A stretch of DNA of 63,991 bases, counting the filler, from Stramenopiles sp. TOSAG23-2 (Eukaryota): the NCBI GenBank assembly GCA_900128395.1. It is 3 parts of 3 records of this genome, joined end to end, with 100 filler letters (N's around TTAATTAATTAA, not from the genome) between each part and the next. Parts side by side here need not be neighbours in the genome. Positions count along the whole stretch, not along the records: positions 1 to 23,024 come from LT649497.1; 2 more parts are not named here. The stretch is one strand, 5' to 3'. Below are positions 4,118 through 60,072 of this stretch, piece after piece. Under the pieces are notes generated by a model. It saw nothing but the letters and a program-made list of their open reading frames with translations, made no database searches and was not told the origin of the DNA. Position 1 is the first letter of the stretch. Every line of letters starts with the position of its first letter. Position numbers and translations under genes: made by a program.

Positions 4118-7100
4118 TTAAAAACCATACTTCTTCAACCTTTCTTTTAATTTTTGAACATCAGCTCGAACATTTCCACGATGTTGTCTTACTTCATTTC
4201 GTATTTTCGATTGTGCAATTGCTACATCCAAATCAAAAGCAGCTTTTTTTGTTTTATTATTTGCACGTTTCCGAATTGCTTTTGTTGATGCCATAGAAAA
4301 ATGAGAATCTTTTGCTCTTTTCGATCTACCAGTACCATCATCATTGCCTTTTCCACCTTCCTTTTCATTTCCTTCATCTGGCATGCTACGTAAACTAGCA
4401 GCCCATTCTCGTTTAAATTCCTCAAATCCAATCCTATCGAAATCTAATTCTTCTTCGCTATCACTTGCAGATCGATAACCCATACTAGATGCTTTATTTA
4501 TATCAGAGGATGGACTTGAATCACCACCATTTTTACCATGTTGTAATTCAGTCAATCTATTCCCTGCAGTGCTAGTTTTTACACGATATGAAAATTCATC
4601 ATTTTTTTTCTTTCGTTCACGTTTACGTTCCATTGCATCTTCATCATATTTAGAAGCTTCATCTTCATTCATATTATCATCGAAATCTCCGCTATCCCTT
4701 TCTTTCCCTTCTCCATTATCAGTGAAATCTTGAACTTTTTGTTCATACATCATTTTCTTTTTATTTACTGAGGTATTTTGTTTAAACTCTTCATTGGTTT
4801 TGATTATGTCACGTGTTTTTTCATTTCTAAACTTTTCAATTTTTTCCACATCTATATTAAATAACCATTGTGGATGTTTTTGTTCTCCACGTAATTCTTG
4901 CAACAATGAGCCAATACGCTTGCCTTTTCTATCACCTTCTACACCCCATATACGCACGGTATGATCATGTGATGAAGATAATATCGATGCTGGCGATGGA
5001 ATGAATTGAATAGAAGAGACGGAATCAGTATGTGCTGCTACGGACCATTCAAATTTTACTATATCTTCATTTAATGACGGCAAATGATATTCTATATCTT
5101 TTGGACTAGCATTTTGCCCATTACTACTGTTTGAATGGCTCAATTTCGTTTTTTTTTTCGATTTTTTTTCCACCTCTTCCTTTGCATGCCCAGCTGGTGC
5201 AACATTTAATGTTTTAATGACTTCCGTGAAATCCCAACATGCTACTTGACCTCGATCTCCACCTGTATAAAGTCTCGATTCATTATCCCAATCTAAGCAA
5301 AGGACAGGTGTCAATGTCCTATGTTCCTCCAAAGAAAAACGTCGTTTTACTTTCGATGATACTGCCTGTTTCTTTTGCATAACTTTACTATTTTCACTAT
5401 CACTAGCCATATAATCATTTTCACCTTCATGTTTGTAAAAATGGCAAAAATGCAATGGACAATGATATTTAAAGATGGAGCCCCGTACACCGTAGACCCA
5501 AACTATACCAGCGCTATCCGCTATAACTATTAATGGATATGGATGTAAAAAGACTATTTCATTTATTTCATGTTCAAATTCTAATTTGGCTTCAATTTTA
5601 CCAGTCTCCGTATCCCATATCCTAACCGTCTTATCTGCAGCACCAGTTGCAAGTAATGTTAAGTTATAGGAAACAGCAGCGCAGGATATATCACCACGAT
5701 GTGTATGTGCAACATCCATTGTACGGACAACAACCCCATGATCAGGTGGATCTTCATCATGCACTACTATCGCCCCATCCCATGAAACGGAAACGACATA
5801 TTTCAATTCATCAATATATTTTAAACTAGTAATTTGAGATGCATGTGGGTCAAAAACTTTCATCAATGCACCACTTTGATAATTATGAATCTGAATGTCA
5901 CCTAAATGATCGCCTATTATAAATTTACGCTTTCGATTATCTAATACTATCGCCGTAATATCACTGCCATTTACTGTTAAATCAAAATATGCTTTTTCCA
6001 ATTTTCCAATCAATGCATTCCATATTTTCACTGAACATCCATGTGTTGTAATAATCGATGATAAGACATCATTATAAATAGCAGCTTGTATTGGTAAATC
6101 ATCCGCACCACCTGTATCCACATTAACAATTCCTTGTTCAAATACATGCAACCGCCGTGTCGTTCCAATTAAACGAGCAACTCGTTCTTCAATACGATTT
6201 TGACACAAGGTAAATGATGTTAATTGCGAATTATCACTATCATCCTCCAATCCTAAATTTGCCATTTCATCAACTTCAGCACTAAACGTTTGGACACATT
6301 GGAAATTTCGTAAATCCCAAATTTTATATGTACCATCCGTATCCGCAGTCACAACTTGATTTGTACCTTCAATGGAATCGATGCTTACTAATGAATTTTT
6401 ATGCCCTTTTAATTTAAAAATAACAGTAGGACTAAATGGACTCCATACATTTGCATCATGTTCAAAACCAGCACTTAATAAAAGTTTAAAATCATCATTG
6501 TAAGTCAATGATAATACGCCTTTTTGATGACCTTCCATTTTTTGCCTACGTGCTCCTGTATGTAAATCCCATACACAAATATTTCGATCCATTGAACATG
6601 AACTAATAGCTTCTAATTGCTTCATATCACATAAATTCATAACCATATCATTATGTCCATACATACATGTAATTTCTTTCTTCGTGTCTACATCCCATGC
6701 ATGTACTAAACCAGCGACACTTGCACTGTATAATAATTTATATCGTGGTTCCCATAATAATCCACATTGTGTATGTGGTGTTGGAAATCGCGCGCTTACT
6801 TGAAACGGATGTAATTTATTTTGATCTAAACCCCATAAAACAATACTACTATCCGTACAGCTAACAGCTAATTTACCTTGTACAGATGAACTGTGATGTG
6901 TTAAATGATCTCCAACATATGCATATGCTGTTGGAGCTCCACGTATATCTTTGTTTCTTAAACTTGCTACTTCAGTTAAATCTTCCACATTATATAATTT
7001 AATACATGGCCCACCCGCATTTGAACTAGATGCTGAAAATAATGATTCCGATGTAACTTCTTTTTCAATGTAAAATGCTACAACATCCAATGGTTGTACA

Positions 7101-7708
7101 AAAAAAGCATTTTCAATAGGTTGTGTCTGTATCGTTTTTGCACCAGGATCTTTTAATATTTCTTCAAAACGTGTTAACGCATTTAAACCTATATAACTAG
7201 TCAAAGAAGCTTTTTCAACTATAAATGCAGTAAATTCATCCCATTCGACCTTTTTATCCCCGTTAATATCAATTTCATCAAACAATTCTCTTAAATTTGA
7301 TACTAAATCGAATGTACTAATTTCCTCATCTTCTTCATCTTTCTTATCAACTGCATCATACATAGCATTACGTTTCTCTTGGAAGTTATCTAAATTTTTT
7401 AACATAATTCGTACAAATTGATTTATATCTACAGCGTGATCTTCATGTTTCATGAAATAACGGCGTATGCTTGCAACTTTTGTTTCGTCTAAACATCTCA
7501 TCACATCAATAATAATTTGTGCAGACAATGCATTATTTTTAGACAACCTTGTACGTGGTGATAAACCGCCCCATTTTAATTCTTCAAACGGTGACATTGT
7601 ATTTGCTCTACTTCTTGCTTTAATTTCTTCAGCTGAAGTGCTACGTGGTGATGCATTTGGTGATATATACGATGGATCTGTTTTACTACTTGCACGTGAT
7701 CTTGACAT
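4118..7708 (-). CDS. EF-hand plus WD40-repeat protein (WDR49/EFCAB8-like)
   Basis: EF-hand ELFDEIDINGDKKVEWDEF followed by many GH...WD repeats. Confidence 0.85.
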   Translation of the reverse strand: MSRSRASSKTDPSYISPNASPRSTSAEEIKARSRANTMSPFEELKWGGLSPRTRLSKNNALSAQIIIDVMRCLDETKVASIRRYFMKHEDHAVDINQFVRIMLKNLDNFQEKRNAMYDAVDKKDEEDEEISTFDLVSNLRELFDEIDINGDKKVEWDEFTAFIVEKASLTSYIGLNALTRFEEILKDPGAKTIQTQPIENAFFVQPLDVVAFYIEKEVTSESLFSASSSNAGGPCIKLYNVEDLTEVASLRNKDIRGAPTAYAYVGDHLTHHSSSVQGKLAVSCTDSSIVLWGLDQNKLHPFQVSARFPTPHTQCGLLWEPRYKLLYSASVAGLVHAWDVDTKKEITCMYGHNDMVMNLCDMKQLEAISSCSMDRNICVWDLHTGARRQKMEGHQKGVLSLTYNDDFKLLLSAGFEHDANVWSPFSPTVIFKLKGHKNSLVSIDSIEGTNQVVTADTDGTYKIWDLRNFQCVQTFSAEVDEMANLGLEDDSDNSQLTSFTLCQNRIEERVARLIGTTRRLHVFEQGIVNVDTGGADDLPIQAAIYNDVLSSIITTHGCSVKIWNALIGKLEKAYFDLTVNGSDITAIVLDNRKRKFIIGDHLGDIQIHNYQSGALMKVFDPHASQITSLKYIDELKYVVSVSWDGAIVVHDEDPPDHGVVVRTMDVAHTHRGDISCAAVSYNLTLLATGAADKTVRIWDTETGKIEAKLEFEHEINEIVFLHPYPLIVIADSAGIVWVYGVRGSIFKYHCPLHFCHFYKHEGENDYMASDSENSKVMQKKQAVSSKVKRRFSLEEHRTLTPVLCLDWDNESRLYTGGDRGQVACWDFTEVIKTLNVAPAGHAKEEVEKKSKKKTKLSHSNSSNGQNASPKDIEYHLPSLNEDIVKFEWSVAAHTDSVSSIQFIPSPASILSSSHDHTVRIWGVEGDRKGKRIGSLLQELRGEQKHPQWLFNIDVEKIEKFRNEKTRDIIKTNEEFKQNTSVNKKKMMYEQKVQDFTDNGEGKERDSGDFDDNMNEDEASKYDEDAMERKRERKKKNDEFSYRVKTSTAGNRLTELQHGKNGGDSSPSSDINKASSMGYRSASDSEEELDFDRIGFEEFKREWAASLRSMPDEGNEKEGGKGNDDGTGRSKRAKDSHFSMASTKAIRKRANNKTKKAAFDLDVAIAQSKIRNEVRQHRGNVRADVQKLKERLKKYGF

Positions 7709-10623: not shown

Positions 10624-12639
10624 TTATGAATCCAGTCCAAGCAGAATCAGTGCTTCGCTTAAAAATTCTTCTCGGCCTTGACTATTAACCAATTTTGTAG
10701 CTTCACGGATAAGTTTCTTCCAATCATTTTCATTTAGTCTCTTTGCTACATCGTTATCCTCACAACATACATCTAGCACTTTCATTTTGCCTTGTGATAG
10801 TTTTTCGAAACAGCCATAGATATAATACCATGCAGATTTTGTCTGCAATATTTCCTTTTCAATATGCCAAAATTCATTTGTACCATCCCAAACTTTGTGC
10901 ACGAGACACTCAAATAGATACGATGGGGGTTTAACATCCTTTTCAACCAATTTTTGTGCTTTCCAAAATTTTAAAAATCTTATAGCACTTTTAGCTTCAT
11001 CAGGAAGTTGGTTTATTGCTTTTGTTTGCATGGGGGAAAATGCTTTTGTCAACCACGGAATTTTATCTTTAGCATTATCTTTTTTCAACTTGTCGAGTAA
11101 TTCGCCCTCAGTCAAAGAAGGAGAAATTAGGAGATCAAAGTGAACCCAGCTTGCTTCTTCATTTACCGTCTCTGATACTCGTAGTTTATGATTAAATTTA
11201 ATTGCATGTTTTGTAACTTCAATTTTATCAATCAACTTGGAATCGTAATAAGTGGAAAATAGTTTTTTCAATGCTTTAGCATGATTTTTCACCCATCCAA
11301 ATTTGTTTTTACTTGTGTTAGGAGTCGAATCTGTGTTGATCATAAGTACCAAATCAATATCAGATGACCATGAATCTTCAGATGACCATAAATCTGTACC
11401 CTTTGCAGATGATCCACCTCTAGGGGTTCTGTCGACACTTGAAAATTCATTGCCTTTGTCTTTAATTGTCACTTTTAAGAAGTTACAAACACTATGGACA
11501 ACTTCATTACACTTGTCGTGATGTACTTTGCTTGGTTTGATCTTGTCAACAATTTTATTAATATTTTTTTTATGGGCTGATGAAATTTCGAAATTTTGCT
11601 TGCGGTGCAAATCATCGATTTTAATTAATTGTGAATTAGCTTTAATATAGCTCTCATACATTCTTAATTCATTCTTTTTAGCATCATACATTGATTTTAG
11701 TAATGCAATCGTATACTTATCAACTAGTTTAAGTCTTTTATCTTCAAGTTTATCAATATCTGTAGTATTGTTATCAACCAAACCAAGAAAAGCGAAATTG
11801 TATGCATGCAATTTGAGACGAGTAGCATTTTTCAGTTCTTGTTCTTTTTCAGAAGTGATACTCCACCACGTGTCAAATTCTTTTCGGCCAACCCGCCTAC
11901 CCGTACAAAAACCGCGAAAAATACGTTTATCTTTTTCATTCATTAGCCAATAATCTGCTCTGTATAGAGTGCAAGGCATATCTTTGCCACCAAAATTTGG
12001 TATAATGTCCATTTTAAATTTTTCGTTTGATGTATCTCCTTTTTTCTTAAATTTTAGAGTTACTTTACCAAGGAAAGATTGTGTTTCAAACTGATGGTCA
12101 TTTGCAAATATATCCTTTAGACTTGTTGGATCTGAAGAAGGGGTTTTGATATTATAGCAGGGACTATTGATAATTTCAACTGATATTAATAGTGATTTAT
12201 CGTCTGCTACGTATTTTTTCACTTCTTGTTTTGATAGAAATTTTTGCCTTCCCTTGTTAGAGTTACTATCAATATTCTCAAAGGGAATAGTGTATGGGCT
12301 TTTAGTACAATCACCATGAACAACACCTAAACGGTATTTGATTTTTGCTTCTTGTTTTGATTCATTCTGGAGAAACAATGACAAATGAGTGTTTTCTCCT
12401 TTACCATTGCCGCTTGGATAAATACTTAAGCTCAATGGATTGCCATAATAATCCAAAAAGGGATAGGTAAGTATTTCTTCTTTCGAATTTTCATCATAAT
12501 TTTCAAGTCGAAACAATAGAACACACCGCGCTTTGTCTGTTTTGCAATCTTGATTAAGCGTGTAATAGTCTAATACGTCAGGAGAGCATTCCATATGTAA
12601 TGCTGGGATTTTCTTTGTTTCCGATACTATGGATACCAT
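10624..12639 (-). CDS. MATH(TRAF)-domain plus OAS/CD-NTase-like nucleotidyltransferase fusion
   Basis: N-terminal MATH signature (LSIYPSGNGKGENTHLSLFL...YVADDKSLLISVEI). C-terminal RGGSSAKGT...SDIDLV, a third Asp in FDLL, and OAS-type KSAIRFLKFWK...PPSYLFECLV. First ATG is at 12639; the open frame extends to 12687. Confidence 0.85.
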   Translation of the reverse strand: MVSIVSETKKIPALHMECSPDVLDYYTLNQDCKTDKARCVLLFRLENYDENSKEEILTYPFLDYYGNPLSLSIYPSGNGKGENTHLSLFLQNESKQEAKIKYRLGVVHGDCTKSPYTIPFENIDSNSNKGRQKFLSKQEVKKYVADDKSLLISVEIINSPCYNIKTPSSDPTSLKDIFANDHQFETQSFLGKVTLKFKKKGDTSNEKFKMDIIPNFGGKDMPCTLYRADYWLMNEKDKRIFRGFCTGRRVGRKEFDTWWSITSEKEQELKNATRLKLHAYNFAFLGLVDNNTTDIDKLEDKRLKLVDKYTIALLKSMYDAKKNELRMYESYIKANSQLIKIDDLHRKQNFEISSAHKKNINKIVDKIKPSKVHHDKCNEVVHSVCNFLKVTIKDKGNEFSSVDRTPRGGSSAKGTDLWSSEDSWSSDIDLVLMINTDSTPNTSKNKFGWVKNHAKALKKLFSTYYDSKLIDKIEVTKHAIKFNHKLRVSETVNEEASWVHFDLLISPSLTEGELLDKLKKDNAKDKIPWLTKAFSPMQTKAINQLPDEAKSAIRFLKFWKAQKLVEKDVKPPSYLFECLVHKVWDGTNEFWHIEKEILQTKSAWYYIYGCFEKLSQGKMKVLDVCCEDNDVAKRLNENDWKKLIREATKLVNSQGREEFLSEALILLGLDS
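11360..11395. repeat. 18-bp tandem duplication inside the NTase catalytic loop
   Basis: TCAGATGACCATGAATCT / TCAGATGACCATAAATCT (17/18 identical), encoding DLWSSE-DSWSSD on the minus strand. Confidence 0.85.
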
Positions 12640-13634
12640 TTTGATCAAATTATTTGTTGTGTCTGCAAATACAGATTTATCCTTCAATGTATGATATAAA
12701 TATTATAAATGTATAGTATTATATATATTCGATTATCAAATACAACAAAATGGTATACTATATATTTGATCACTAAAGATGATGTTGTAAAATATAATAT
12801 GACTTAATTATCAACACAAATGTGAGGGGTTATACAATCGCAGTGCGTATTAAAAATGAATAAAAATCACTCGTTTTACACCAACGTAACTGTTGCTATA
12901 AATGATTTATTCCTTTCACTGTTTTTGCTTCTATCCTTTCACTCTCTTTATTGTACAGCAGCTCTATGTTTTCTATCTAATACAGTATGTTTGTTGTTTT
13001 GTGTTTTGTGTATAATAATTTATGATATTCCTCTTGGCTTTTTTCATAAAAATTAGAGCAATAATTTCCATTCTTAAAATATTTTTTCATAACCGCCAGG
13101 ATCAATAATAGCTATAATGATGATACAGTTAAAGGATAATATCTATGAATTATAAAATACCCTATTTACATATTTATAATAATTATAATAAAATATCCGA
13201 AATAGTACTGATTCAAATGTATCCTTCGAGAGTGATGTTCATCCTCAAGCAGTCCGCATTTTTTCCAGATGCAAATAGCATGTAATATCATTATTTTCAT
13301 AATTGATTTTTGTAAATCACCCCGAAAAGCAACATGAGGAAAAAATGCGTGATTAATAGCATTGACATAGCATCGATCATTTAGCCTTATTTTTTACCGT
13401 GCACACCTTCATAACCAACAAAATCAACCCAATAATACATACTATATACAATGTACAAACGTACTATAAAATATTTTTCTCGAACAAAATATATAACAGA
13501 AATATATTCAATTGTATTACGATTTATAATTAGGTCTAACTACAATTAATATTTATCAACACGACAAATAAAATAATATTTTAACACGACTATTTTTTCA
13601 ATTGCCAGAAAGAGTATTACAATAACAAAAAGGA

Positions 13635-15059
13635 ATGGCTTTGTCAACATTACAAAAAAACATTGTCAACATTTCAAACAAATGCGAAAGCTTGTTTCTG
13701 CTTTCATTAGATTGGGGAAGACCAAAAGATCCACCTATGTCATTAGGTCATTCCAGCATTTTAACGCATATTCAAAAGCGTGGTGTATCGGTGATTTCGT
13801 CAACCTGGTCTACCAACAGTCCTAATTTCTCCATTAATCCTATTTTGGATGATATTTTTATGGCGTCTAGTGAGAATGAGAACATGGACATAGGATTGGG
13901 TATGTTTGTATGGAATGATTCTCCAATGAAAAAGATTATGAAAGAACTTAAAATGAGTAATATGTTTTCTGGTAGAATTATATTAGGTGGTTCACAAATT
14001 AGCTATACAAAAAGTGAAATAGAAAATTTTTATCCACACGCAGATGTTTTCATCAGGGGTTATGCAGAAGAAGCTTTGGCACGCATCATGTTAGCAGAGG
14101 AAAAAAACCCTGTAATAAGAGGTGTGCATTATGCGGGCGAACCCGATCTTGGAATGTCAGCCATTGCAGATTTACGTGAATTACCATCACCTTACCTGCA
14201 TGGAACAATCAAGCCTCAACCGTTCTTACGATGGGAAACCCAGCGTGGGTGTCCATTTAGTTGTGGATTTTGTCAACACAGAGAGTCAGACATATCAAAA
14301 ACACGCCGTCCATTGGATACCTCTCGCATTGAGAAAGAAATAACATTTTTTGCTGAAAATCCAATTATTCAAGATATTGCAGTGCTAGATCCTGTTTTTA
14401 ATTCTGGGCCAAACTATATGGATGTAATGCAAAAATTTGTAGATGTTGGATATACAGGAAAACTCTCTCTACAGTGCCGCATGGAAATGGTAAACGACGA
14501 TTTTCTAGACGTCGTAGACGCATTGAACGAAACTGGAGGCGTTGTTTTAGAATTTGGATTACAAACTATTCATCGCAACGAAGAAATTCACATCCAACGC
14601 CCCAATAATAAAAAGAGAATAAAACGTGTGCTTGCTGAAATGAATCGTAGAAACATTGCTTCTGAGATATCACTAATATTTGGTTTACCTGAACAAACTG
14701 TTGAATCTTTTCAACAAACCATTGAATTTTGTAAATCGTACAACGTATCAGCTATATTTGCGTATCCGTTACGACTACACAGGGGTACACCGCTTCATGC
14801 AAATAAATCGAAGCTACAGCTTGTTGAGTCCACCGATGAGGATGCCAAAAATATGAATCTTGGAGAGGATCATATTGGCCATGTTGTCGCGAGCCCTACA
14901 TTTACGAGAGATGATTGGATGAAAATGGCGCACCAAGCAAAATTATTGGACGAGTATAATGCGCAACGTGTTGAACCAATTCAACATAATGCTATGGGGA
15001 AAATGGCAAAAACATTACAGCAAACATTGTGGACAAACTCCGAGAACAATGATGTGTAA
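13635..15059 (+). CDS. B12-binding-domain radical SAM protein
   Basis: CxxxCxxC in ETQRGCPFSCGFC. N-terminal cobalamin-binding-like segment (IILGGSQIS, FIRGYAEE), plus EFGLQT and LIFGLPEQT. Intronless. Confidence 0.88.
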   Translation: MALSTLQKNIVNISNKCESLFLLSLDWGRPKDPPMSLGHSSILTHIQKRGVSVISSTWSTNSPNFSINPILDDIFMASSENENMDIGLGMFVWNDSPMKKIMKELKMSNMFSGRIILGGSQISYTKSEIENFYPHADVFIRGYAEEALARIMLAEEKNPVIRGVHYAGEPDLGMSAIADLRELPSPYLHGTIKPQPFLRWETQRGCPFSCGFCQHRESDISKTRRPLDTSRIEKEITFFAENPIIQDIAVLDPVFNSGPNYMDVMQKFVDVGYTGKLSLQCRMEMVNDDFLDVVDALNETGGVVLEFGLQTIHRNEEIHIQRPNNKKRIKRVLAEMNRRNIASEISLIFGLPEQTVESFQQTIEFCKSYNVSAIFAYPLRLHRGTPLHANKSKLQLVESTDEDAKNMNLGEDHIGHVVASPTFTRDDWMKMAHQAKLLDEYNAQRVEPIQHNAMGKMAKTLQQTLWTNSENNDV

Positions 15060-18955: not shown

Positions 18956-21900
18956 TTATCTTTTTTTTGCACTTCCCGAAGTTTTATGGTATTTTTTTCT
19001 ATGTTTTACTTTGTCTAGTTTGAGGCATCTTTTGTCACAATAATAAACATCTTTGCATTTTGGGCAAGATTCTTTAAGCTGAACACCATTTCCTTCCACA
19101 ACGCAAAATTGTAGCTTCTGTGTAATTTTTGCTTTCTCCGTCTTCATTTCATCATACTCTGCATCCTTCATGATAGGTTGTTTAAGCTGCCAATAGCAAT
19201 GATATGCTTTTTTAATTTGCTTGCATAGCTTTTCTAATTTCATTCTTTCTTTTTCACCTTGTTTTTTTTCCATTGACACTTTGTGACACTTGAAATATCT
19301 ACAAGCTGGACTTAGTATCTCAAACTCTTTTGGATCATCTACACGAATTGTCAATTCCCCATCTGCTGAGCGTTTCAAAAACGGTTCCAAAATACGTATT
19401 TCAGTTCCTTTTGGGAAGCATTCATTCCAATGCTTCAATTCAGACTGGGGAGTATTGTAAAGTCCCAGTTGAACCCCATATCCATCTTTGTCTGTGATCA
19501 ATGTGTACAAACCTTTGCGTTTCATCGGTTCGACGCATAGGAAACCTTGTAGATATTTCCCTGTAGCAGGTCTCATAAATGTTGATATAAGATCTACAAT
19601 CGAGCATGGTTTTAAGTCCATATTATTGCAAACTTTCTGATTTGATTTTTTAGTGATTCCTTTATCCGAATATTGCACCTCTTTGTTATCGCCAACATTG
19701 CTTTTTTTGCCGTAACATGTTAGGAAATTAGAAACAACAGTACTCAAATCAAAATCAAGAGCTGTGATTTCAATATCTATAGCCTTTTGAAAGTAGTGTG
19801 CACTATTAATACGATTTTTGTTCTCGTCTTTCATTCTTTTAGAATAGTTTTTTTCAGAAGTGTATTTACCAGTTATGGCGTTGACACAGCCATCCAATTT
19901 AATTTTTGGGAGCTTAGAACACTGAAGTGAATCAAGTGTATATTTACCTACTAGATGCGAGACCTCGTAAAACACTGTTCCATGATTATTCTTGATATTT
20001 GGAAATTTCATTGGTATCTTATGCTGTTTACCAGAATATGATAAGCAGACTTGTGCCATATTTTTATTGCCTTTGTACATCTGACTATTGCCAATAACTT
20101 TATTATCTTTGAATGTCAAATTTTTACGAATTTTGACTGGCGACGTATCTTTCTTGTTTGCCAACATATACGAAATTCCTGCCAAGTGGTTGCCAAGAAG
20201 TGTACAACGAGTTATTTCGCATTTTCCCCCATAACATGAAATTCCATTATTGCCATTGTTATTTACCAAAGTGTTTCTGCAAATTAGATGCGCATTTTGC
20301 TCATCTGGTGGTTGAAGAACAATGCCGTCATGTTTGTTGTGAATAACTTTACATTCATTTATAAATAAACTTCCAGAGCAACCCATAATGCCCGCTTTTT
20401 GTGTACTGCCACAGTTTTCAAAGATAGAGGATTCAACAACTGCTTTGTCTCCTTCTTCGTATAGCGTTAAGCCTTGTCCTGTACACCCTTTTATGATTGA
20501 CGTTGTTATTTTTGCTGAGCTGCCTTTATATCTAATTTCAATTGCTGGATGTTGCTGACATCCTGATATACTACAATCGATTATATTTGCGAATCCATCC
20601 CCATGTACTAAGACGGCTGAAGCAGGTCCAGAAATTCTGCACTTTTCTAGGCTTATTCTTCCACCATTTTGGGTTGCACAGCTTGCACCGCTACCAAGTT
20701 TTGATATTATAACACAATTTTTGATATTGCAGATTCCATTGTGGCAAAAAATACTGTGTGAGCGATAAGGATTACTCTGGTTTACATTCCTATTTCCTTG
20801 ATTTTCAAGTTTTAGATTTTCCAGAATAATTTCTATATGCTGTCCAGGCTGTACCAACAAATGAAAAATATGACGTTTGTGATTTTTTTTTTTTAAAATA
20901 ACTCGCCCTGTTTTGCTTTCTGATATCTCGCCAATTATTTGTATTTTTTTTATAAATTTAGTAGGAAAATGAGATTCAAAAATTTCTATTGCCTCTTCAT
21001 ACGTTCCGGGCATCATAACAATAGATACTCCTTCGTGTGGCAATTTATTTTGGTATTTCATTGCATTAATTGCATCTTTCAACGATTTATAGTAACCGTC
21101 GTTTTTATCAACTAAAATAACAAAATGTTTAAAAAGTATATCGGAACAACAATGTAATTTTGATATGTCATATTCATTATATTTTATTTCTGGTATATGG
21201 CAACTCGCAGGACTTACAGCTTTACCTATTAAAGCACACGATATCCGTTGGAAATCCAATTGTAAATTACTGGATATAGGGTTTTTATTTAAGAAATGCT
21301 TCTCAATATACATTTTAATAGTTTCACGCCATTGTAAGATAAATCGGATATCTTCATCTTGAGCATTCAGCGAAATTATAATTCTTCCAAGCCTCAAAAA
21401 CGTTTTATAACAAAACCATAATAGTGGCTCCGAAAACACACTTAAATTATTGTGTACTATTAGGCTAACGACGTGTTCTAAGTCAATCTTTGCATCGTTG
21501 AATTTCTTTAATTTAGTACGAGTTAACGAACGGTTTATATAAAGCAGACATAGATATTTCGAATGGCTATAATTTTCATTCTCTTCAATTAACTTAATTT
21601 CTTCACTGTAACTTGCTTCTGCATCCTCGAATTTATTGCTTCTATATAATTTATTCATGTTTTTAATAGTTCTTGCATCGTTGTCTCTATTATTTTTTCT
21701 TGCGAGCAAAAACCTGCCATTATAAGTATATTTTCCAAACTTGCTCTTTAAATACATATGCGCCTGATGTTTTGAATTAATTACTTGTAAGCGGCACTGT
21801 TCGATAGAAATGGGAGAATTTTTGCAATCATCGCAGACACAGTCTCCGTCATAAAAGTGGTAAGCGTATAACATCTTTGGCACGTACCCTAATATAAACC

Positions 21901-22807
21901 ATGATATTTTGCCAAGTGGCGTTTCAAAAAATGGCGATCCTTTATCATTTTTAAATCCGTCCATCCTTCGTACCCAATGTTCAATTCTACAGGGCTTATT
22001 GAAATATTTATTATATATTCGAGATGCAGAAAATGTATGAATTAACTGAAAAGCCATGTCGTATACAGCCTTTTCCTTTTTAAAATCAAAATTTCGACCG
22101 CGAATGCCATCTAATTTATCTTTTGTCACATTAAACCATTTTTCTTGCACTGCATTTAACGCTCTTCCATTTTGGTCAACTATATATTGTAACACAGAAA
22201 TAAACAATTGCATGGATCCGTCAGAATAATAATTACTTCCAGGTTTCTCCATTCGCTGAACTTCAATAACAAGAATCTCAAAGGCAAAAGAAAGAACTTT
22301 CTGCGTTTTTGCGGAACTAATTGCTTGTTTTGCAGTAAATTTAAGCATACGAGCCGCATTTTGAGCAGCTTGGTTATTTTCAAAAGCATTTATAAGTTTC
22401 TCTCCTGGCAATTTGCCATGCTCTAACGTATTTTTAAATACCAAATCAATTTGACCTATAAAAGGTAACTTACACTCAATTGCAAATTTTTTGAGATGTA
22501 CATTATTATACCTCTCTTCAAGTTTTCTCGTTATTTCTTCAACCTGTTCCCGACTTATAGCAACATTTGGGGTATCAATAACCAAGTCCATATCACTTGA
22601 TAACATATAAGTTCCTTTCCTGTAGCTACCACCTATTTTAATCTGCAATTCTTCATCAATGTGAAATTCACGAAGAGTATTCTCCAGTTTTTTTACCTGT
22701 GCTTTGATTTCTTCATCATTCAAAGCATTGACGAAAAAAGTTTTATACACCTTTGATACCTTAAGAAATTCTTCAGCCTCTTCTTTTTTCACTTTCGTAT
22801 TTAGCAT
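18956..22807 (-). CDS. OAS/CD-NTase-like nucleotidyltransferase + TPR + right-handed beta-helix + MYND-like Zn finger
   Basis: IGGSYRKGTYMLSSDMDLVI, IDLV and AARMLKF...SFAFEILV. TPR: NKFEDAEASYSEEI...LYINRSLTRTKLKKFNDAKID. Beta-helix: SLKDAI...MPGTYEE and repeated I..C.I...G units. Zn finger: CPKCKDVYYCDKRCLKLDKVKH. Confidence 0.85.
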   Translation of the reverse strand: MLNTKVKKEEAEEFLKVSKVYKTFFVNALNDEEIKAQVKKLENTLREFHIDEELQIKIGGSYRKGTYMLSSDMDLVIDTPNVAISREQVEEITRKLEERYNNVHLKKFAIECKLPFIGQIDLVFKNTLEHGKLPGEKLINAFENNQAAQNAARMLKFTAKQAISSAKTQKVLSFAFEILVIEVQRMEKPGSNYYSDGSMQLFISVLQYIVDQNGRALNAVQEKWFNVTKDKLDGIRGRNFDFKKEKAVYDMAFQLIHTFSASRIYNKYFNKPCRIEHWVRRMDGFKNDKGSPFFETPLGKISWFILGYVPKMLYAYHFYDGDCVCDDCKNSPISIEQCRLQVINSKHQAHMYLKSKFGKYTYNGRFLLARKNNRDNDARTIKNMNKLYRSNKFEDAEASYSEEIKLIEENENYSHSKYLCLLYINRSLTRTKLKKFNDAKIDLEHVVSLIVHNNLSVFSEPLLWFCYKTFLRLGRIIISLNAQDEDIRFILQWRETIKMYIEKHFLNKNPISSNLQLDFQRISCALIGKAVSPASCHIPEIKYNEYDISKLHCCSDILFKHFVILVDKNDGYYKSLKDAINAMKYQNKLPHEGVSIVMMPGTYEEAIEIFESHFPTKFIKKIQIIGEISESKTGRVILKKKNHKRHIFHLLVQPGQHIEIILENLKLENQGNRNVNQSNPYRSHSIFCHNGICNIKNCVIISKLGSGASCATQNGGRISLEKCRISGPASAVLVHGDGFANIIDCSISGCQQHPAIEIRYKGSSAKITTSIIKGCTGQGLTLYEEGDKAVVESSIFENCGSTQKAGIMGCSGSLFINECKVIHNKHDGIVLQPPDEQNAHLICRNTLVNNNGNNGISCYGGKCEITRCTLLGNHLAGISYMLANKKDTSPVKIRKNLTFKDNKVIGNSQMYKGNKNMAQVCLSYSGKQHKIPMKFPNIKNNHGTVFYEVSHLVGKYTLDSLQCSKLPKIKLDGCVNAITGKYTSEKNYSKRMKDENKNRINSAHYFQKAIDIEITALDFDLSTVVSNFLTCYGKKSNVGDNKEVQYSDKGITKKSNQKVCNNMDLKPCSIVDLISTFMRPATGKYLQGFLCVEPMKRKGLYTLITDKDGYGVQLGLYNTPQSELKHWNECFPKGTEIRILEPFLKRSADGELTIRVDDPKEFEILSPACRYFKCHKVSMEKKQGEKERMKLEKLCKQIKKAYHCYWQLKQPIMKDAEYDEMKTEKAKITQKLQFCVVEGNGVQLKESCPKCKDVYYCDKRCLKLDKVKHRKKYHKTSGSAKKR

Positions 22808-23024: not shown

Positions 23025-23124
23025 NNNNNNNNNNNNNNNNNNNNNNNNNNNNNNNNNNNNNNNNNNNNTTAATTAATTAANNNNNNNNNNNNNNNNNNNN
23101 NNNNNNNNNNNNNNNNNNNNNNNN
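23025..23124. other. Artificial contig linker (N44-TTAATTAATTAA-N44)
   Basis: 100-bp spacer with stops in all six frames; an identical linker lies at 46075-46174. Confidence 0.97.
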
Positions 23125-23670
23125 GTGCATTCACCCCATTGTTCGGATCAACCAATGTTAAAGTCGTTTTAGCAGTATTACTTGCGCTTCCTTCGAAAAG
23201 CAAAGGACCTTTAATCCTACCAGTTATTGTCAAACGATCGCTAGTTGCATCACCAATAGCTACATTTCCTTTCAAAGTGGAAGCACCAGAAACAGTTAAT
23301 GCACTCCCTGAAGCAATTGTACCAAAGGACGCTATTGATGCTAAATTACCATTTGTTATAATTGTTCCAGTCGTCGCAGGCCACACTACTTTGCATGCTG
23401 ATGACGCGGATTCAAACGTTAATGATGTTTTTTTTGTATCACTACTTGCTCTTTTAAATTTAAGTGGAGTCGCTAATAGAATCCTAGATTTTATTACCGT
23501 CGTATCAGCTTCTGCATTCCCAAGATTTAAATCCCCGGTAACGTCAACAGTACCTGATACAGTCAATGTTGTCAAACTTGGCAAATCAGTAAGATCGTTT
23601 GTATTACCATCAGTAATAATGGTTCCACCGGTATTTGGTAATGTAATAGTTTTATCAGTTGATGTGGCGT
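23125..23670 (-). CDS. Fragment of a Thr/Gly/Ser-rich repetitive beta-structured protein (phage tail-fibre-like repeats)
   Basis: Repeated units TDKTITLPNTGGTIITDGN / KVVWPATTGTIITNGN / LLFEGSASNTAKTTLTLVDP. Runs off the contig end and has no clear start. Confidence 0.6.
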
Positions 23671-24539: not shown

Positions 24540-25925
24540 CTACTTTAAACAATACAAACCATTTTCTGTGTAATATTTACCTGCTTCTGGAATAAAATAA
24601 ATTTCATCATCATCATCATTACCACCATTTTTTGCATTACCATCTTTAGTTTCATCATTTGTTTCAGAATATTTTTTAAAACCAAATGGTATTGTTGGTG
24701 CATCTTTTCTATCTGTATCATGCATTTGTATATGCAAATGTGGCCTAGGACAAAAACCAACATCGCCACTATTGCATATATGTTGGCCACGTTTCACCTT
24801 CTCCCCTAATTTTACTAAAACACTATTAGCTTGAATATGAACATATTCAACATATTGTCCATCATCTAATTTTAACATGATAGAATTCCATTTATATAAA
24901 TTCGATGCATGAATTCCACCAACTATATTATCTTGTTTTATATCAACTACAATGCCATCCGAGACAGCATAAATAGGAGTATCTACAGGGCATTCTAAAT
25001 CTATTGCATGTAATGTAGCTTTGAAAAAATGTGTAAAACATCCGCAAAATCCTTGTGAACATAAAATAGGTTTTGCATTCATTGCACTGATAGCAGTCGT
25101 ATTATTATTATTATTATTATTATTCATGACCATTTTTGTTGATGATACCGTATTGTTATCATTAGTATCATTCATATCAGTTAATAAATTTAATTTAAAT
25201 GGAAATATATAATTACAATATTTTTCTTTTTCTTTAATAGTGTTCAAAACTTGCTTTCCATTACTATATAAATTTGTAATTAATGGCGAAGTGTATTGAA
25301 ATAAAGATATATCTTGTATATCTGAATACAAATTATATTGATTATTATTATTGTTGTTGTTTACATTATTATTATTATCATCCTTATCATTAGTATTATT
25401 TGTGATGGACATAGTTAACGGTTCAAGATAACATACATCAATTAATTTTCTTGGTTCTAACACAATAACAAATGTTGAACATTCAAAAAGGTTTCCTTTT
25501 GTATCTCTTGCTTCTCCTTTATCCATCGCTTCCATATTTACATTATACAAATTACAGGAAACGGAAATGTAAAATGTTCGTATATTATTATTATGTTTGT
25601 TTATACATGTCAATAAACCACTTTCTGGATCAATTGATATATCTGGCATTTGATCTTCATTATCAACAGTCAAGCCAAAATCTTCTGGAGCAAACGTGTC
25701 AATGCCTACAATCCAATTTGGTGGTTTATTATCATGTATAATATGACAACCTGGAGCAGCTTGTAAGACGAAATTACCTTTTACTTTATGTCGTTGATTA
25801 TTATTATTACCTTTCTTTTTCTTTGATGATTTCTTTTTTTTCTTTTTCTTTTTATTGTTATTAATATTGTTGTTCTTATTGTTACTTGTTGCATCTAATT
25901 TTGCAAAATCTTCTACGACTTGCAT
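24540..25925 (-). CDS. Peptidase M23 (LytM-like) domain protein
   Basis: HAIDLECPVDTPIYAVSDGIV, YVHI, VKLGEKVKRGQHI and GFCPRPHLH (HxH zinc motif). Confidence 0.88.
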   Translation of the reverse strand: MQVVEDFAKLDATSNNKNNNINNNKKKKKKKKSSKKKKGNNNNQRHKVKGNFVLQAAPGCHIIHDNKPPNWIVGIDTFAPEDFGLTVDNEDQMPDISIDPESGLLTCINKHNNNIRTFYISVSCNLYNVNMEAMDKGEARDTKGNLFECSTFVIVLEPRKLIDVCYLEPLTMSITNNTNDKDDNNNNVNNNNNNNQYNLYSDIQDISLFQYTSPLITNLYSNGKQVLNTIKEKEKYCNYIFPFKLNLLTDMNDTNDNNTVSSTKMVMNNNNNNNNTTAISAMNAKPILCSQGFCGCFTHFFKATLHAIDLECPVDTPIYAVSDGIVVDIKQDNIVGGIHASNLYKWNSIMLKLDDGQYVEYVHIQANSVLVKLGEKVKRGQHICNSGDVGFCPRPHLHIQMHDTDRKDAPTIPFGFKKYSETNDETKDGNAKNGGNDDDDEIYFIPEAGKYYTENGLYCLK

Positions 25926-27322: not shown

Positions 27323-29317
27323 ATGAATAATAGAAACAAACGTGGACCAATGAGTATTGTTGTTATTAATTATGAAAATCAAAATGTATATATAACTATC
27401 ATAATAACAATATTATTAATTGGATATTATCCATTGTTTTCAAATTTCATAAATAGCGATGGTTTAGAAATGCTACAATCAGAACCAATCCAAACCGATG
27501 ATATTTTGGCGTTACCGCACCAGTGGACCTTTCTTTCAACATGGGATGACGATGGTAATTTCCTTGAAAATGAAATGATACATAAATTGGATTTTAAACA
27601 TTTACAACAAATGTTTATGGCTGTACGTATTAATGTTTGGGAACCGCTTGGATGGATTATGAAAGCTTTTGTATATAATTTTTGTGGCTTATCCTCAATT
27701 GCAAATCGGATTGCTGCATTTCTATTGCACACTGTAAATACATTGTTGTTGAGGGAATTAATTGATTGGGTTTTGAAGAAACGATTCAATGCACGTTGTG
27801 GCAACAGCTCATTAGTTGGTGCTCTTTTTTTTGGCATTCATCCTTTAAATGTGGAAGTTATTGGATGGCCAAGTGCAAATCCATATACATTATCATGCAC
27901 ATTTTCGATTATATCATTGTTATATTATACAAAACATGTAGATTATAATTATTATAGTAGTATTAATACTAATAATACGAAAGATAATAATAATTCAACA
28001 TCATATTTTTATCTTTACATATCAACCATTTTTTATTTTTTTGCTGTAATGTCAAAAGGTGTTGCATTGACAATACCAATTGCTATATTGGCAATTGATT
28101 GTGCATTGTTAAATCGTCAATATTTACAAAACAATGCAATTGGAGATTTGTTTAAAGATTTAGTTATTCATTGTTTAAAACGTGTTATATATGCAATCGC
28201 GGTAATTATTGCATTTTTTGCAACTGTTATGGCAAATATGGATGGGACAAACCCAATGTTGGATACCATTAAGTTAACAACTGCACAACGTATTATGAAA
28301 GCGTTTTCATGCTTTACATTTTTTATTGGTAAAATTATATACCCAGCATCATTACATGCACATTATCAAGTACATGAGTGGAAATTAGATGTTAACAATG
28401 TTAGTAATGATGTTTTAATTAGTATAATTTTCATTTGCATTATTACATGTATTTGCATAGTGAAATTAAAATCTAATCCGGAACTATTTGGATTTTGGTT
28501 ATATTTCATTGTCATGATGTTGCCTGTTACTGGAATTATACAACATGGTATGATAGCTATGGGTGGGGATCGTTACATGTATTTGCCAATGTTAGGTGTG
28601 AGCGTTATGATAAGTTTTATTTATCATAGTAATCTAGTGCATAATAATGACATGGATGATTTGATTGAAAATGAAGAAAAAGATGAAGATATTAATATTA
28701 TGGAAAATCAGGAAGTCGAAGAGGATGATAGTGATGACAATGAACGTATATATTCTAATGTTAGATCGATGCCTAAGAGTATTGATACAATCTGTTTCAG
28801 TGTGTTGATATTGTATATTGTATTAACGAAAAGACAAATAGGTACATGGCATAATGATATAACGTTATGGACCCACAACACCAAGCAGGATCCAACAGAT
28901 TGGAGAAGTATGGATCAATTGGTAGAATTTTATGTGAAAAAAAATTATGTTGATCATGCAATACCTTTCTTTGATCGTATTGAATGGTATTCTCCACAAG
29001 ATGGTTTAAAAGCGGCGTTACATATGGCAAAGTTTAGCATCTTGAAAGGCAAGACAATGGAAGCATGCCAACGATATCAGGAAGCAGCAGAAAAATTTAG
29101 TAACAATGCTGCATTGTACAATAATTTAGGTGTATGTGCATTGCAAAAAGATAATAGGAAAGTTGGAATGGAAATGTTTACAAAGGCATTGGAGTATGCA
29201 GTAATTGATCGTGAAAAAAGGACTATTACGCATAATATCAACACGTTGAAAGATGATATGGAAAACAATCCGGATGGTAGCAAAAGATATCGAGGTAGTC
29301 ATTCATTGATTTTTTGA
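27323..29317 (+). CDS. TMTC-like membrane glycosyltransferase (O-mannosyltransferase-like) with C-terminal TPRs
   Basis: WDD luminal loop, LFFGIHPLNVEVIGW, SKG and DRYMYLP, multiple TM helices, TPR ALYNNLGVCAL. Confidence 0.82.
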   Translation: MNNRNKRGPMSIVVINYENQNVYITIIITILLIGYYPLFSNFINSDGLEMLQSEPIQTDDILALPHQWTFLSTWDDDGNFLENEMIHKLDFKHLQQMFMAVRINVWEPLGWIMKAFVYNFCGLSSIANRIAAFLLHTVNTLLLRELIDWVLKKRFNARCGNSSLVGALFFGIHPLNVEVIGWPSANPYTLSCTFSIISLLYYTKHVDYNYYSSINTNNTKDNNNSTSYFYLYISTIFYFFAVMSKGVALTIPIAILAIDCALLNRQYLQNNAIGDLFKDLVIHCLKRVIYAIAVIIAFFATVMANMDGTNPMLDTIKLTTAQRIMKAFSCFTFFIGKIIYPASLHAHYQVHEWKLDVNNVSNDVLISIIFICIITCICIVKLKSNPELFGFWLYFIVMMLPVTGIIQHGMIAMGGDRYMYLPMLGVSVMISFIYHSNLVHNNDMDDLIENEEKDEDINIMENQEVEEDDSDDNERIYSNVRSMPKSIDTICFSVLILYIVLTKRQIGTWHNDITLWTHNTKQDPTDWRSMDQLVEFYVKKNYVDHAIPFFDRIEWYSPQDGLKAALHMAKFSILKGKTMEACQRYQEAAEKFSNNAALYNNLGVCALQKDNRKVGMEMFTKALEYAVIDREKRTITHNINTLKDDMENNPDGSKRYRGSHSLIF

Positions 29318-46074: not shown

Positions 46075-46174
46075 NNNNNNNNNNNNNNNNNNNNNNNNNN
46101 NNNNNNNNNNNNNNNNNNTTAATTAATTAANNNNNNNNNNNNNNNNNNNNNNNNNNNNNNNNNNNNNNNNNNNN
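46075..46174. other. Artificial contig linker (N44-TTAATTAATTAA-N44)
   Basis: Same structure as 23025-23124. Confidence 0.97.
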
Positions 46175-46940
46175 GATCATCTCGATCAATCCCTTGATAT
46201 ATTTCCCGAAAAACGAAAAGCTTCTCATTAATTGATGATGGATCCAACGTCCTTGAATTGTTAACAGGCCTCCTCATTTGTCTTTTTGAATCACCTCTAG
46301 CAGAAGTATTTGGACTTCTTACGGATGATTCCTGGATTTCACTTAAAAGTCGTTTTAATGATTTATCCAATTCGTCCCTATTTGTAAGTAATCCAGGTGT
46401 CCAATAACGACTGTATGATAATTGTCGAAACGGTCTCTTCGTCTTTGGATTCATCAGCAATTGAAGCAGGCTGTAATACCTTGGATTTTGACAAACAAAT
46501 AAGGCCCGCCCACCATCTTTAATGAAACTTTTAAAGAATTTTGTAAAAGTAAATAAACTATTTGTCGTTTCTTCCAAGTCAATAATTAATTGATTATTAT
46601 TAATGATCCGGTTTGAAAAATGATTTAAAACTTTTTCATTTATATGTTTAGTTGATACTTTTTGCGTATTTAAAAACACATATGTACGAATAAGCTTTTC
46701 ATTCGCTGCTGTGCTATTATTTGTGGAGAAAAACTTCGCGCTTGAGCAGTTGCTATTACTCTTACTATTATTTATACTATTATCATATTTATATTGACAC
46801 CTCCATGAAAGTGCTGAAGATGACGATATTATATGTTTACCATAATAATTATGTGGTTGATGAAACAACTTACGGAATCCATTTTTCCCCGTCTTCCCTG
46901 CCACCACAGGCCTCAACGTTGACGTAATCATTCGCTTCAT
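46175..46940 (-). CDS. Mitochondrial ribosomal protein uS2m-like with N-terminal presequence, 3'-truncated by the contig end
   Basis: IIDLEET, ALFV and YWTPGLLTN match uS2 motifs. The N-terminus is Arg/Ser-rich and poor in acidic residues. Confidence 0.65.
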
Positions 46941-60017: not shown

Positions 60018-60072
60018 NNNNNNNNNNNNNNNNNNNNNNNNNNNNNNNNNNNNNNNNNNNNNNNNNNNNNNN
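60018..60072. other. Scaffold gap (55 N)
   Basis: Run of Ns in a low-complexity intergenic region. Confidence 0.95.

Follow-up and report, generated by a model that had tools for sequence, protein, structure and literature searches.

A marine protist protein family that joins a Pol-beta-superfamily nucleotidyltransferase to a TPR-like region, a parallel beta-helix, a predicted OB fold and a MYND-type finger

Nucleotide-signal synthases such as cGAS, OAS and the bacterial CD-NTases are central in antiviral immunity, and work on tracing their past in unicellular eukaryotes has only begun. We know of no CBASS CD-NTase (CdnD, CdnE, CdnC, CdnG), animal OAS1 or cGAS that carries a fused TPR, beta-helix, OB and MYND. 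RNA-tailing enzymes of the TENT kind (Cid1, URT1, TUT7, GLD-2, Trf4) are often fused to RNA-binding modules, and TTC5 (Strap) joins TPR to a C-terminal OB fold. The eSMODS, eukaryotic CD-NTases of the OAS superfamily, are described as having affinity to bacterial clade C/D CD-NTases and a patchy distribution among protists, and are defined by SMODS (PF18144) as the top Pfam match (Culbertson & Levin 2023, PMC10732462); TPR, MYND and beta-helix each occur zero times in the main text of that work. Here, we describe a 1283-aa protein, P0001, whose NTase differs from eSMODS so defined in giving no Pfam match to SMODS at E ≤ 10.

The window, meaning the whole stretch of 63,991 nucleotides analysed, filler included, is eukaryotic in character, AT-rich (G+C ~31-33%) and has few introns; it is composed of at least three contigs. 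The features considered here are as follows.

18956..22807, minus strand: whole coding sequence of P0001, single exon, 1283 aa plus stop; open frame
22406..22807, minus strand: NTase N-lobe (aa 1-134), two N-terminal helices and Pol-beta palm with G60, S61, D72, D74 and D121; from Pfam, PADLOC, NCBIfam, residue conservation and AF2
21878..22405, minus strand: helical C-lobe of the NTase (aa 135-310), motifs AAQNAARMLK and K..LSFAFEILV; from AF2, VIA/Foldseek, the CdnD profile alignment and hhalign to P0003
21683..21877, minus strand: Cys-rich, poorly conserved linker (aa 311-375); pLDDT <50 at aa 312-340, not kept in alignment A4
21173..21682, minus strand: degenerate TPR-like helical region (aa 376-545); faint TPR_2 and alignment to P0002
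20003..21139, minus strand: right-handed parallel beta-helix (aa 557-935); Pfam Beta_helix, phmmer, homology to P0002 and P0005
19628..20002, minus strand: non-conserved linker (aa 936-1060); no phmmer match, pLDDT <50 at its C-terminal end
19307..19627, minus strand: 'ILEPFLKRSADGELTIRVDDP' or EPFLKR domain (aa 1061-1167); predicted OB barrel, conserved in 8 relatives
18989..19306, minus strand: split MYND-type zinc finger (aa 1168-1273); zf-MYND and alignment to P0005
19100-19279, minus strand: K/E-rich two-helix insert of ~60 aa within the MYND finger; helices in the predicted model
23025..23124, no strand: assembly join (N44-TTAATTAATTAA-N44), 217 nt upstream of the start codon of the 1283-aa ORF
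10624..12687, minus strand: second NTase gene (P0003), MATH plus CBASS-cyclase/OAS-like NTase; MATH_2 and CBASS_cyclase_a

The reading frame of P0001 is uninterrupted over 1283 codons; at the G+C of the window a random codon is estimated to be a stop at a frequency of ~0.078, which excludes a chance origin of so long a frame. A TAA lies in frame 15 nt 5' of the ATG, and the gene sits close to a contig end. The gene is genuine and intact and belongs to a unicellular marine eukaryote; every element named in the preliminary description is present in its open frame, the TPR faintly. We considered whether the fusion could be an amplification or assembly chimera of unrelated genes, given that the window is joined from contigs, that the runs from which it probably derives are very small, at 17-21 million letters, and that the NTase-TPR junction is not crossed by any one RNA contig. 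None of the four sequencing runs examined has a joint inside the ORF. Against a chimera, contigs of the independent run X3 extend across the boundary of NTase and linker at 21712-21944, and one contig from an RNA library, a type of library that may contain DNA, spans 18957-21184 unbroken. RNA-library run X6 yielded no contig over 21184-21373, 21682-21903 or 22586-22684, so its contigs do not carry the single transcript called for earlier across the NTase-TPR junction. A single-base insertion at 22733 in one depth-3 contig is likely an assembly error.

Relatives also speak against a chimera. P0005 (1227 aa) aligns end to end with P0001, from aa 2 to aa 1283, at 27% identity; L004, an unrelated metagenome contig, has the same domain order and is colinear; and among 43 scanned relatives, Beta_helix accompanies the NTase in 16, with a clear TPR in 15 and MYND in 5. 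A chimera is effectively refuted and retains only the slightest probability: the fusion is genuine and conserved. In P0027, MYND lies N-terminal to the same NTase, so the two are paired in another order as well. Both the family and the architecture are new, within a known superfamily.

That superfamily is Pol-beta (NTP_transf_2 clan), as established by the motif GGSYRKGT (aa 59-66), the Asp pair of SDMD (aa 71-74), the third carboxylate D121 and the palm. Pfam NTP_transf_2 scores 24.6 bits in the protein and 26.3 bits in the isolated domain (cut-off 21), the AF2 model of the NTase has a pLDDT of 87.3 with strands and helices in the expected order, and the VIA and Foldseek alignments cover aa 4-293. 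Across 63 aligned family sequences, counting rows with a residue at the position, G60 is kept in 54/56, S61 in 52/56, D72 in 55/57, D74 in 56/57 and D121 in 58/61. The NTase had been called intact, and the GS motif and catalytic Asp triad, kept across the family, agree with this; judged by its residues the enzyme appears catalytically intact.

Sequence profiles lean towards the CD-NTases; by ESM features and the Pfam palm model, the NTase leans instead towards poly(A) polymerases. When family profiles were run against all PDB sequences, CdnD (9ntn) was the best match (E 1.2e-4, aligned through both lobes), with CdnE (6e0m) at E 1.6e-4 and CdnC at E 0.45. The PADLOC CBASS cyclase model is matched by 25/34 family members; in P0001, Cyclase PDLC00803 (31.1 bits, E 4.5e-8) and NCBIfam CBASS_cyclase_b (29.2 bits against a cut-off of 200 bits, E 6.8e-7) both cover the palm only. 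Foldseek against the PDB places CdnC as the top match of the NTase model (E 2e-7); in the fold search, CD-NTases and RNA-tailing TUTases come out level in Z (17.6-16.2). No cGAS, OAS or CD-NTase family model scores above its curated cut-off. The NTase further differs from CBASS CD-NTases, OAS1 and cGAS in that SMODS, OAS1_C and Mab-21 have no match in 34 members at E ≤ 1 among the families listed, and in that its family has been seen so far in eukaryotes only.

The latter point would also suit an OB-targeted RNA 3'-tailing enzyme, that is, a TENT-like non-canonical poly(A)/poly(U) polymerase. MTPAP-like_central, the TENT-type palm of Pfam, scores 27.3 bits for the NTase against a cut-off of 27 and matches 30/34 members, and the named ESM-Atlas clusters closest to it are eukaryotic MTPAP-like/PAP_assoc families (0.95; OAS at rank 15, 0.92), which carry MTPAP-like_central, NTP_transf_2 and, in 14-27% of their members, PAP_assoc. 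However, PAP_assoc (PF03828), the second element of a TENT beside the palm, is found in none of 34 members at E ≤ 1 among the matches listed; accessory domains differ from those of TENTs; and the sole RNA-tailing enzyme among the PDB profile matches listed is Trf4, at E 0.25-0.48 and over the palm only, against 1e-4 for CdnD and CdnE. Housekeeping TENTs are also widespread, whereas this family comprises 62 cluster representatives among 1.84 billion proteins. We regard RNA tailing as the chief competing reading, possible but somewhat doubtful.

The second NTase gene lies 6.3 kb away on the same contig piece. P0003 matches MATH_2 at E 4.6e-9 and NCBIfam CBASS_cyclase_a at E 2.1e-13 (aa 375-665 against profile positions 3-288 of 317), with OAS1_C (1.6e-3) and SMODS (3.3e-3) each below cut-off. 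BLASTP of the 1283-aa protein against the MATH-NTase gave nothing significant, and hhalign of the family against P0003 gave a probability of 89% (E 2.3e-6, 126 columns). By these comparisons the two NTases appear to be distant homologues at profile level only, much as the preliminary description had held in seeing no recent duplicate; a recent tandem duplication of the MATH-NTase was rejected for want of a significant BLASTP match. The 24 window ORFs scanned gave no match to a nucleotide-signal receptor or effector (STING, SAVED, TIR or similar).

Among the fused modules, the TPR region is the weakest element. TPR_2 matches faintly (E 0.054, aa 387-408), and the segment aligns with a TPR_2-bearing segment of the relative P0002; together with the clear TPRs of other members this upholds a TPR-like region, though a degenerate one in P0001. 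The beta-helix is far clearer: Pfam Beta_helix matches at E 4.6e-16 over aa 730-884 and at E 1.4e-18 for the region alone (59.3-67.5 bits, cut-off 25.9), homology to P0002 and P0005 sets its bounds at about aa 557-935, close to the 350 aa first estimated, and phmmer detects it in 17 relatives. Its N-terminal cap is of the type 'VDxxGxG...G.Y.E', and it is in this cap region only that the family profile resembles pectinesterases, matching their N-terminal parts at E 1e-3. The linker at aa 936-1060 has no phmmer match among the 63 proteins searched.

The 'ILEPFLKRSADGELTIRVDDP' domain, noted earlier as unknown but conserved-looking, is a real, conserved domain for which modelling predicts an OB fold like those that bind nucleic acids. 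Its likenesses include ssDNA/RNA binders, HIN domains, aaRS anticodon-binding domains, RPA/SSB and TTC5, and the OB folds of Teb1, SSB and RPA score at least as high against it as that of TTC5. TTC5_OB (PF16669) has no match listed at E ≤ 10 for the C-terminus or P0067-P0069 and is absent among the top 25 families of 9 members of alignment A2. P0001 differs from TTC5 in the ~380-aa beta-helix between TPR and OB fold and in the added NTase and MYND. Were the protein an RNA-tailing enzyme, the OB fold would hold a single-stranded RNA or tRNA-like substrate, in keeping with its likeness to aaRS anticodon-binding domains, RPA/SSB and TTC5, and the TPR, beta-helix and MYND would anchor the enzyme to a protein complex, such as one associated with the ribosome or with decay, as TPR plus OB do in TTC5.

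The C-terminal Cys/His finger is MYND-like, as first proposed, but split by the helical insert. zf-MYND scores 22.2 bits in the full protein and 23.9-24.6 bits for the C-terminus alone (cut-off 22.7), covering only profile positions 11-37 of 39. The residues are C1169/C1174, then the insert, then C1248, C1251, C1257, C1261, H1269 and H1274; the first Cys pair, ~70 residues upstream of the rest, is placed before the insert by alignment to the canonical MYND of P0005, and model confidence is 50-68. The second half (CxxC...YCxxxC...H) is shared with the fingers of SMYD, DEAF1 and ZMYND, whereas here the first pair is CxxxxC, the insert intervenes and the last ligand is His, not Cys. The insert is common to the relative P0018, an ESM-Atlas search with the C-terminus returned MYND clusters only (0.80-0.82, a lead-level score), and the family profile matches SMYD1 at E 0.015. 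Protein-binding modules such as TPR and MYND predominate in the chain, and some members have weak matches to MntA antitoxins and aminoglycoside NTases, as might be expected if nucleotides were transferred to a protein or small-molecule acceptor in the MNT/HEPN or aminoglycoside NTase manner, or if the protein were a scaffold that binds without polymerising nucleotides. These matches are limited to ~20-80 palm residues, however, and the two-lobed cGAS/OAS/TENT fold with a full helical C-lobe, rather than a minimal NTase, and the conserved full catalytic set make this improbable.

The family is sparsely distributed. Word-indexed homologue searches returned 1, 5 and 5 proteins; searches with one or two short patterns found no relative in bacterial or other genome contigs (0/54 matches, alignment A4), in viral contigs (0/48 pattern matches, alignment A4) or, with P0001 alone as query, in metagenome contigs (0/247 pattern matches); and a BFVD fold search gave no match at E ≤ 1e-3. 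With no bacterial relative among these results, there is no support for a recent transfer of a CD-NTase. Two of the relatives carry database labels, P0011 as Rhodomonas salina (EukProt) and P0056 as a 'TPR repeat protein' (JGI). The contig of a near-identical strain differs in frame by indels of +3 and -18 nt, and 34 of the 40 listed differences (of 65, on one contig) are non-synonymous, with omega ~1.5-2.2, an excess not significantly above neutral on these 40/65 differences (P 0.05-0.24). Mostly amino-acid-changing divergence is the pattern expected of conflict genes, and the variant shows no sign of strong purifying selection, which counts against RNA tailing.

Taken together, we tentatively favour, at a little short of an even chance, a ligand-gated OAS/CD-NTase-like signal synthase that combines sensor and enzyme in one chain. 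In this model, a two-lobed Pol-beta NTase of the cGAS/OAS/CD-NTase and TENT structural class is permanently fused to what would be a recognition module, made of the degenerate TPR, parallel beta-helix, OB fold and MYND finger. A trigger would be bound by this C-terminal module, with the OB fold probably taking single-stranded or structured nucleic acid and the TPR, beta-helix and MYND probably binding protein; once the trigger was bound, the NTase would be free to build a short oligonucleotide signal from NTPs, in the manner of OAS and bacterial CD-NTases. The sensor had been assigned to the TPR or beta-helix; because its fold is of the nucleic-acid-binding kind, the OB domain is a candidate at least equal to either, while the messenger output proposed earlier stays putative, with profiles leaning to CD-NTases, the fold search tied with TUTases, and ESM features and the Pfam palm favouring poly(A) polymerases. 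We count for a signal synthase the catalytic conservation, the CD-NTase profile matches, hhalign to the MATH-NTase, the conserved architecture, the sparse distribution, the ssDNA/RNA- and HIN-like OB fold and the strain-variant pattern. Against it count the lack of SMODS, OAS1_C and Mab-21 matches, CBASS scores far below cut-off, the lack of an effector in the window ORFs, the TENT-type palm at cut-off, the ESM-Atlas neighbours, a single-stranded-nucleic-acid type of OB that suits RNA tailing too, the non-significant amino-acid-change excess and the bacterial relatives not found. Activity, ligand, product and any immune role are inferred. More ambitiously, P0001 might be the founding member of an unrecognised protist-wide class of single-chain innate-immune sensors, in which the OB fold, with the TPR and beta-helix, would detect nucleic acid of foreign origin, or else a protein or glycan from a pathogen, and the CD-NTase-like enzyme would pass a nucleotide signal to an effector; we consider this unlikely, if conceivable.

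The family adds an NTase with intact catalytic residues that no curated model names, set in an architecture of five parts found repeatedly in distantly related protists. It poses the question of whether this is a further eukaryotic lineage of messenger synthases or a set of RNA-tailing enzymes recruited to a TTC5-like TPR plus OB platform. Were the immune-sensor reading true, eukaryotes would have arrived at nucleotide second-messenger immunity by a third path, assembled independently, in addition to cGAS/cGLR and OAS. Either outcome would be new biology for marine protists, extending known enzyme classes rather than introducing a new principle.

The reading frame at 18956..22807 on the minus strand is open for 1283 codons in a window of about 31-33% G+C, a length that, at the ~0.078 stops per random codon estimated from this composition, is not due to chance. 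A TAA lies in frame 15 nt 5' of the ATG, and the start is credible because the alignment of the closest full-length relative, P0005, begins at residue 2 of the encoded protein, P0001. The 1283-aa open reading frame put forward in the preliminary description is thereby borne out. As the four sequencing runs compared contain no read or contig joints inside the ORF, the gene appears to be a single exon. The protein is divided as follows.

Domains of P0001
aa 1-310, NTase, with GGSYRKGT at 59-66, SDMD at 71-74 and D121
aa 311-375, Cys-rich stretch of low model confidence, with no conservation
aa 376-545, TPR region, with a faint TPR_2 match (E 0.054)
aa 557-935, right-handed beta-helix (Beta_helix, E 1.4e-18)
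aa 936-1060, non-conserved linker
aa 1061-1167, OB fold
aa 1168-1273, MYND-type finger, 24.6 bits against a cut-off of 22.7 with the C-terminus scanned alone

The NTase was matched by NTP_transf_2 at 24.6-26.3 bits (Pfam cut-off 21) and by MTPAP-like_central at 27.3 bits (cut-off 27), and its AlphaFold2 model, built from a 34-sequence alignment (pLDDT 87.3, pTM 0.86), combines a four-stranded palm with two helices at the N-terminus and a second lobe that is helical. The TPRs proposed for aa 376-545 were upheld in part: the segment aligns with the TPR_2 segment of the relative P0002, and strong TPR matches occur in 15 of the 43 relatives compared with Pfam (Beta_helix in 16, MYND in 5), but the match in P0001 itself is faint. 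The family profile also matched pectinesterases, in their N-terminal cap region (E 1e-3). Aligned with P0005, whose MYND is canonical, the finger has its ligands at C1169 and C1174, then C1248, C1251, C1257, C1261, H1269 and H1274; unlike in P0005, a two-helix, K/E-rich insert of ~60 residues, also present in the relative P0018, splits the first Cys pair from the remaining ligands.

Relatives were collected with aa 1-340 as the HMMER query against 1.84 billion representative proteins; the search returned 62 proteins at E<=1e-3, 32 of them at <=1e-10. Two of the 62, P0047 and P0062, were treated as spurious: both are Calx-beta repeat proteins, matched at many short stretches. With the individual domains of P0001 as queries, the beta-helix was found in 17 collected proteins and the OB domain in 8. 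P0005 (1227 aa) aligns with P0001 over its full length at 27% identity, the P0002 alignment extends from the helical lobe to the OB domain, and in L004, a metagenome contig, the NTase, TPR, beta-helix and OB+MYND parts follow one another on one strand in the same order. It had been considered that the fusion might be an assembly chimera of unrelated genes; the full-length match and the identical order in L004 effectively exclude this highly improbable reading, and the fusion is conserved. Many shorter matches resemble pieces of G+C-rich, intron-bearing eukaryotic genes, one of them carrying the EukProt label Rhodomonas salina. Pattern scans of limited sensitivity revealed no bacterial or viral relatives, nor did a similarly limited scan of BFVD for viral ones. 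Other arrangements were also observed: in P0027 the MYND is placed N-terminal to the NTase, and P0021 carries Peptidase_S74 (endosialidase chaperone), ankyrin, NTase and beta-helix. The family members P0040 and P0065 (530 and 535 aa) are without the C-terminal beta-helix, and the longest contig for both measures 419,336 nt, suggesting two paralogues on one eukaryotic contig.

Across a 63-row alignment, the catalytic residues are conserved among rows with a residue at the position (G60 in 54/56, S61 in 52/56, D72 in 55/57, D74 in 56/57, D121 in 58/61), which argues that the family is under selection for catalysis. The modelled two-lobed fold, being common to cGAS/OAS/CD-NTases and to the RNA-tailing nucleotidyltransferases (TENTs), does not separate these classes, as the fold-comparison scores illustrate.

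Fold comparison of the NTase model (Z)
CdnG, CD-NTase, 17.6
URT1, TENT, 17.6
Cid1, TENT, 17.3
TUT7, TENT, 17.2
CdnD, CD-NTase, 17.1
cGAS, CD-NTase class, 15.6

Foldseek placed CdnC at the top (2e-7), with TUTases after it. At the sequence level the lean is towards CD-NTases. When compared with all PDB sequences, the family profiles matched CdnD at 1.2e-4 with both lobes aligned, CdnE at 1.6e-4, other CdnE-type chains and CdnC, whilst the sole TENT among the PDB matches listed was Trf4 (0.25-0.48, palm only). The PADLOC CBASS cyclase model scored 31.1 bits and matched 25 of 34 members, and NCBIfam CBASS_cyclase_b reached E 6.8e-7, although these CBASS-model scores are confined to the palm and fall far under the curated cut-offs. 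Also against this lean, the Pfam TENT-type palm model attains its cut-off, and the nearest ESM-Atlas entries are eukaryotic MTPAP-like/PAP_assoc clusters (0.95), with OAS at rank 15 (0.92). Among the Pfam families listed for the 34 members at E<=1, SMODS, OAS1_C and Mab-21 were absent, a further point against the lean; PAP_assoc, however, was likewise found in 0/34.

A Glu within 'Y/F.LE.L' is typical of OAS/CD-NTases; TENTs have 'SSY..L'. The corresponding Glu of P0001, E177 in the helical-lobe motif 'K.P.F.LE.L', is conserved in 54/58 rows of the 63-row alignment, and the motif was aligned with 'SSFFIECL' of CdnE and with 'PSYLFECL' of the neighbouring MATH-NTase, P0003.

10624..12687, minus strand, P0003, 687 aa, MATH/TRAF-like domain and NTase, 6.3 kb from the P0001 gene on the same contig piece

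The NTase of P0003 matched NCBIfam CBASS_cyclase_a at E 2.1e-13 over almost the entire model, with OAS1_C and SMODS matches below threshold, and by these matches it resembles a CD-NTase/OAS-like enzyme of eukaryotes that carries a MATH adaptor. The relationship between P0001 and P0003 is only a distant one: they gave no significant BLASTP match, and hhalign related the P0001 family to P0003 at 89% probability over 126 columns, in agreement with the earlier view that the two are not recent duplicates.

In the main rival reading, quite possible if distinctly short of an even chance, P0001 would be an RNA 3'-tailing enzyme that the OB fold targets and the TPR and MYND dock; its TPR+OB layout resembles that of TTC5, a ribosome-binding factor in tubulin autoregulation (PMC10403363). 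P0001 is unlikely to nucleotidylylate some other acceptor or to serve as a scaffold.

A 2564-nt contig from the RNA library X6 (record 12), ~97% identical, spans 18957-21184 unbroken, taking in the coding sequence from the beta-helix through to the stop codon together with some of the 3' flank. The TPR and NTase regions are covered in part by shorter contigs. Most of the gene, with the NTase-linker junction at 21712-21944, is also represented in contigs from X3, an independent run. As DNA may be present in an RNA library, transcription is likely, not proven.

The variant represented by the 2564-nt X6 contig has in-frame indels (+3 nt at 20085, -18 nt at 21466). It differs at 65 sites, and of the 40 listed 34 are non-synonymous and 6 synonymous, giving omega ~1.5-2.2 with P 0.05-0.24 against neutrality; all 10 listed within 19005-19572, the OB-MYND region, are non-synonymous. 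Two database fragments covering the C-terminus, P0068 (95% identical) and P0069 (76%), confirm that diverged alleles or close paralogues of it exist. Together these differences and fragments point to a C-terminal module under weak constraint or diversification, positive selection not being demonstrated.

The window is eukaryotic: the 24 ORFs scanned, mostly long and without interruption, include WASH complex subunits, a UBR1-type N-recognin, a P4-ATPase, a RabGAP, a PPR protein and PDE-delta. Matching sequencing runs mostly carry marine or seawater metagenome labels, and pieces of X6 and X7, both labelled 'marine metagenome', match at 95-99% identity. Linkers and a gap indicate several contigs, not a single molecule.

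23025-23124, linker N44-TTAATTAATTAA-N44, six-frame-stop, joining contigs
46075-46174, linker N44-TTAATTAATTAA-N44, six-frame-stop, joining contigs
60018-60072, N run (gap)

The P0001 gene belongs to the first piece, positions 1-23024, whose end is 217 nt away. ORFs 23069..23584 (minus) and 46119..46940 (minus) begin inside linkers and are partly artefacts, and gene neighbourhood across the joins is meaningless. Other genes observed were the following.

3249-3989, plus strand, NAGPA phosphodiester glycosidase (E 6.6e-31)
4118-7708, minus strand, 1196-aa protein with several WD40 propellers, including TEP1-like models; N-terminal ~220 aa without a Pfam match
13635-15059, plus strand, B12-binding-domain radical SAM protein (Radical_SAM E 2.1e-14, B12-binding E 8.5e-5) on a eukaryotic contig
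24540-25925, minus strand, Peptidase_M23 protein, 461 aa (E 4e-15)
27323-29317, plus strand, 664-aa ORF with zero Pfam families at E<=1e-3, on another contig piece than P0001

The NAGPA and Peptidase_M23 families are bacterial-looking, set amid typical eukaryotic genes. The B12-binding-domain radical SAM class is mostly bacterial, so the protein at 13635-15059 may be a transfer.

Our literature searches found no paper on a nucleotidyltransferase with MYND, beta-helix and TPR, on a CD-NTase with MYND, or on zf-MYND with Beta_helix. In a survey of eukaryotic CD-NTases, eSMODS were defined by a top SMODS match (PMC10732462), which P0001 lacks; TPR, MYND and beta-helix go unmentioned in the text of that survey, whose supplementary lists could hold members. 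We rate P0001 as a new family and a new architecture inside a known enzyme superfamily.

The gene is intact, with a conserved five-part architecture and active site. Its C-terminal module would recognise a trigger and control or target the NTase. The favoured reading, held tentatively and at close to an even chance, is that P0001 is an OAS/CD-NTase-like sensor-synthase; it draws on the sequence lean, the link to a paralogue resembling CBASS cyclases, a sparse distribution, rapid change at the C-terminus and an OB fold like the type found in nucleic-acid sensors.
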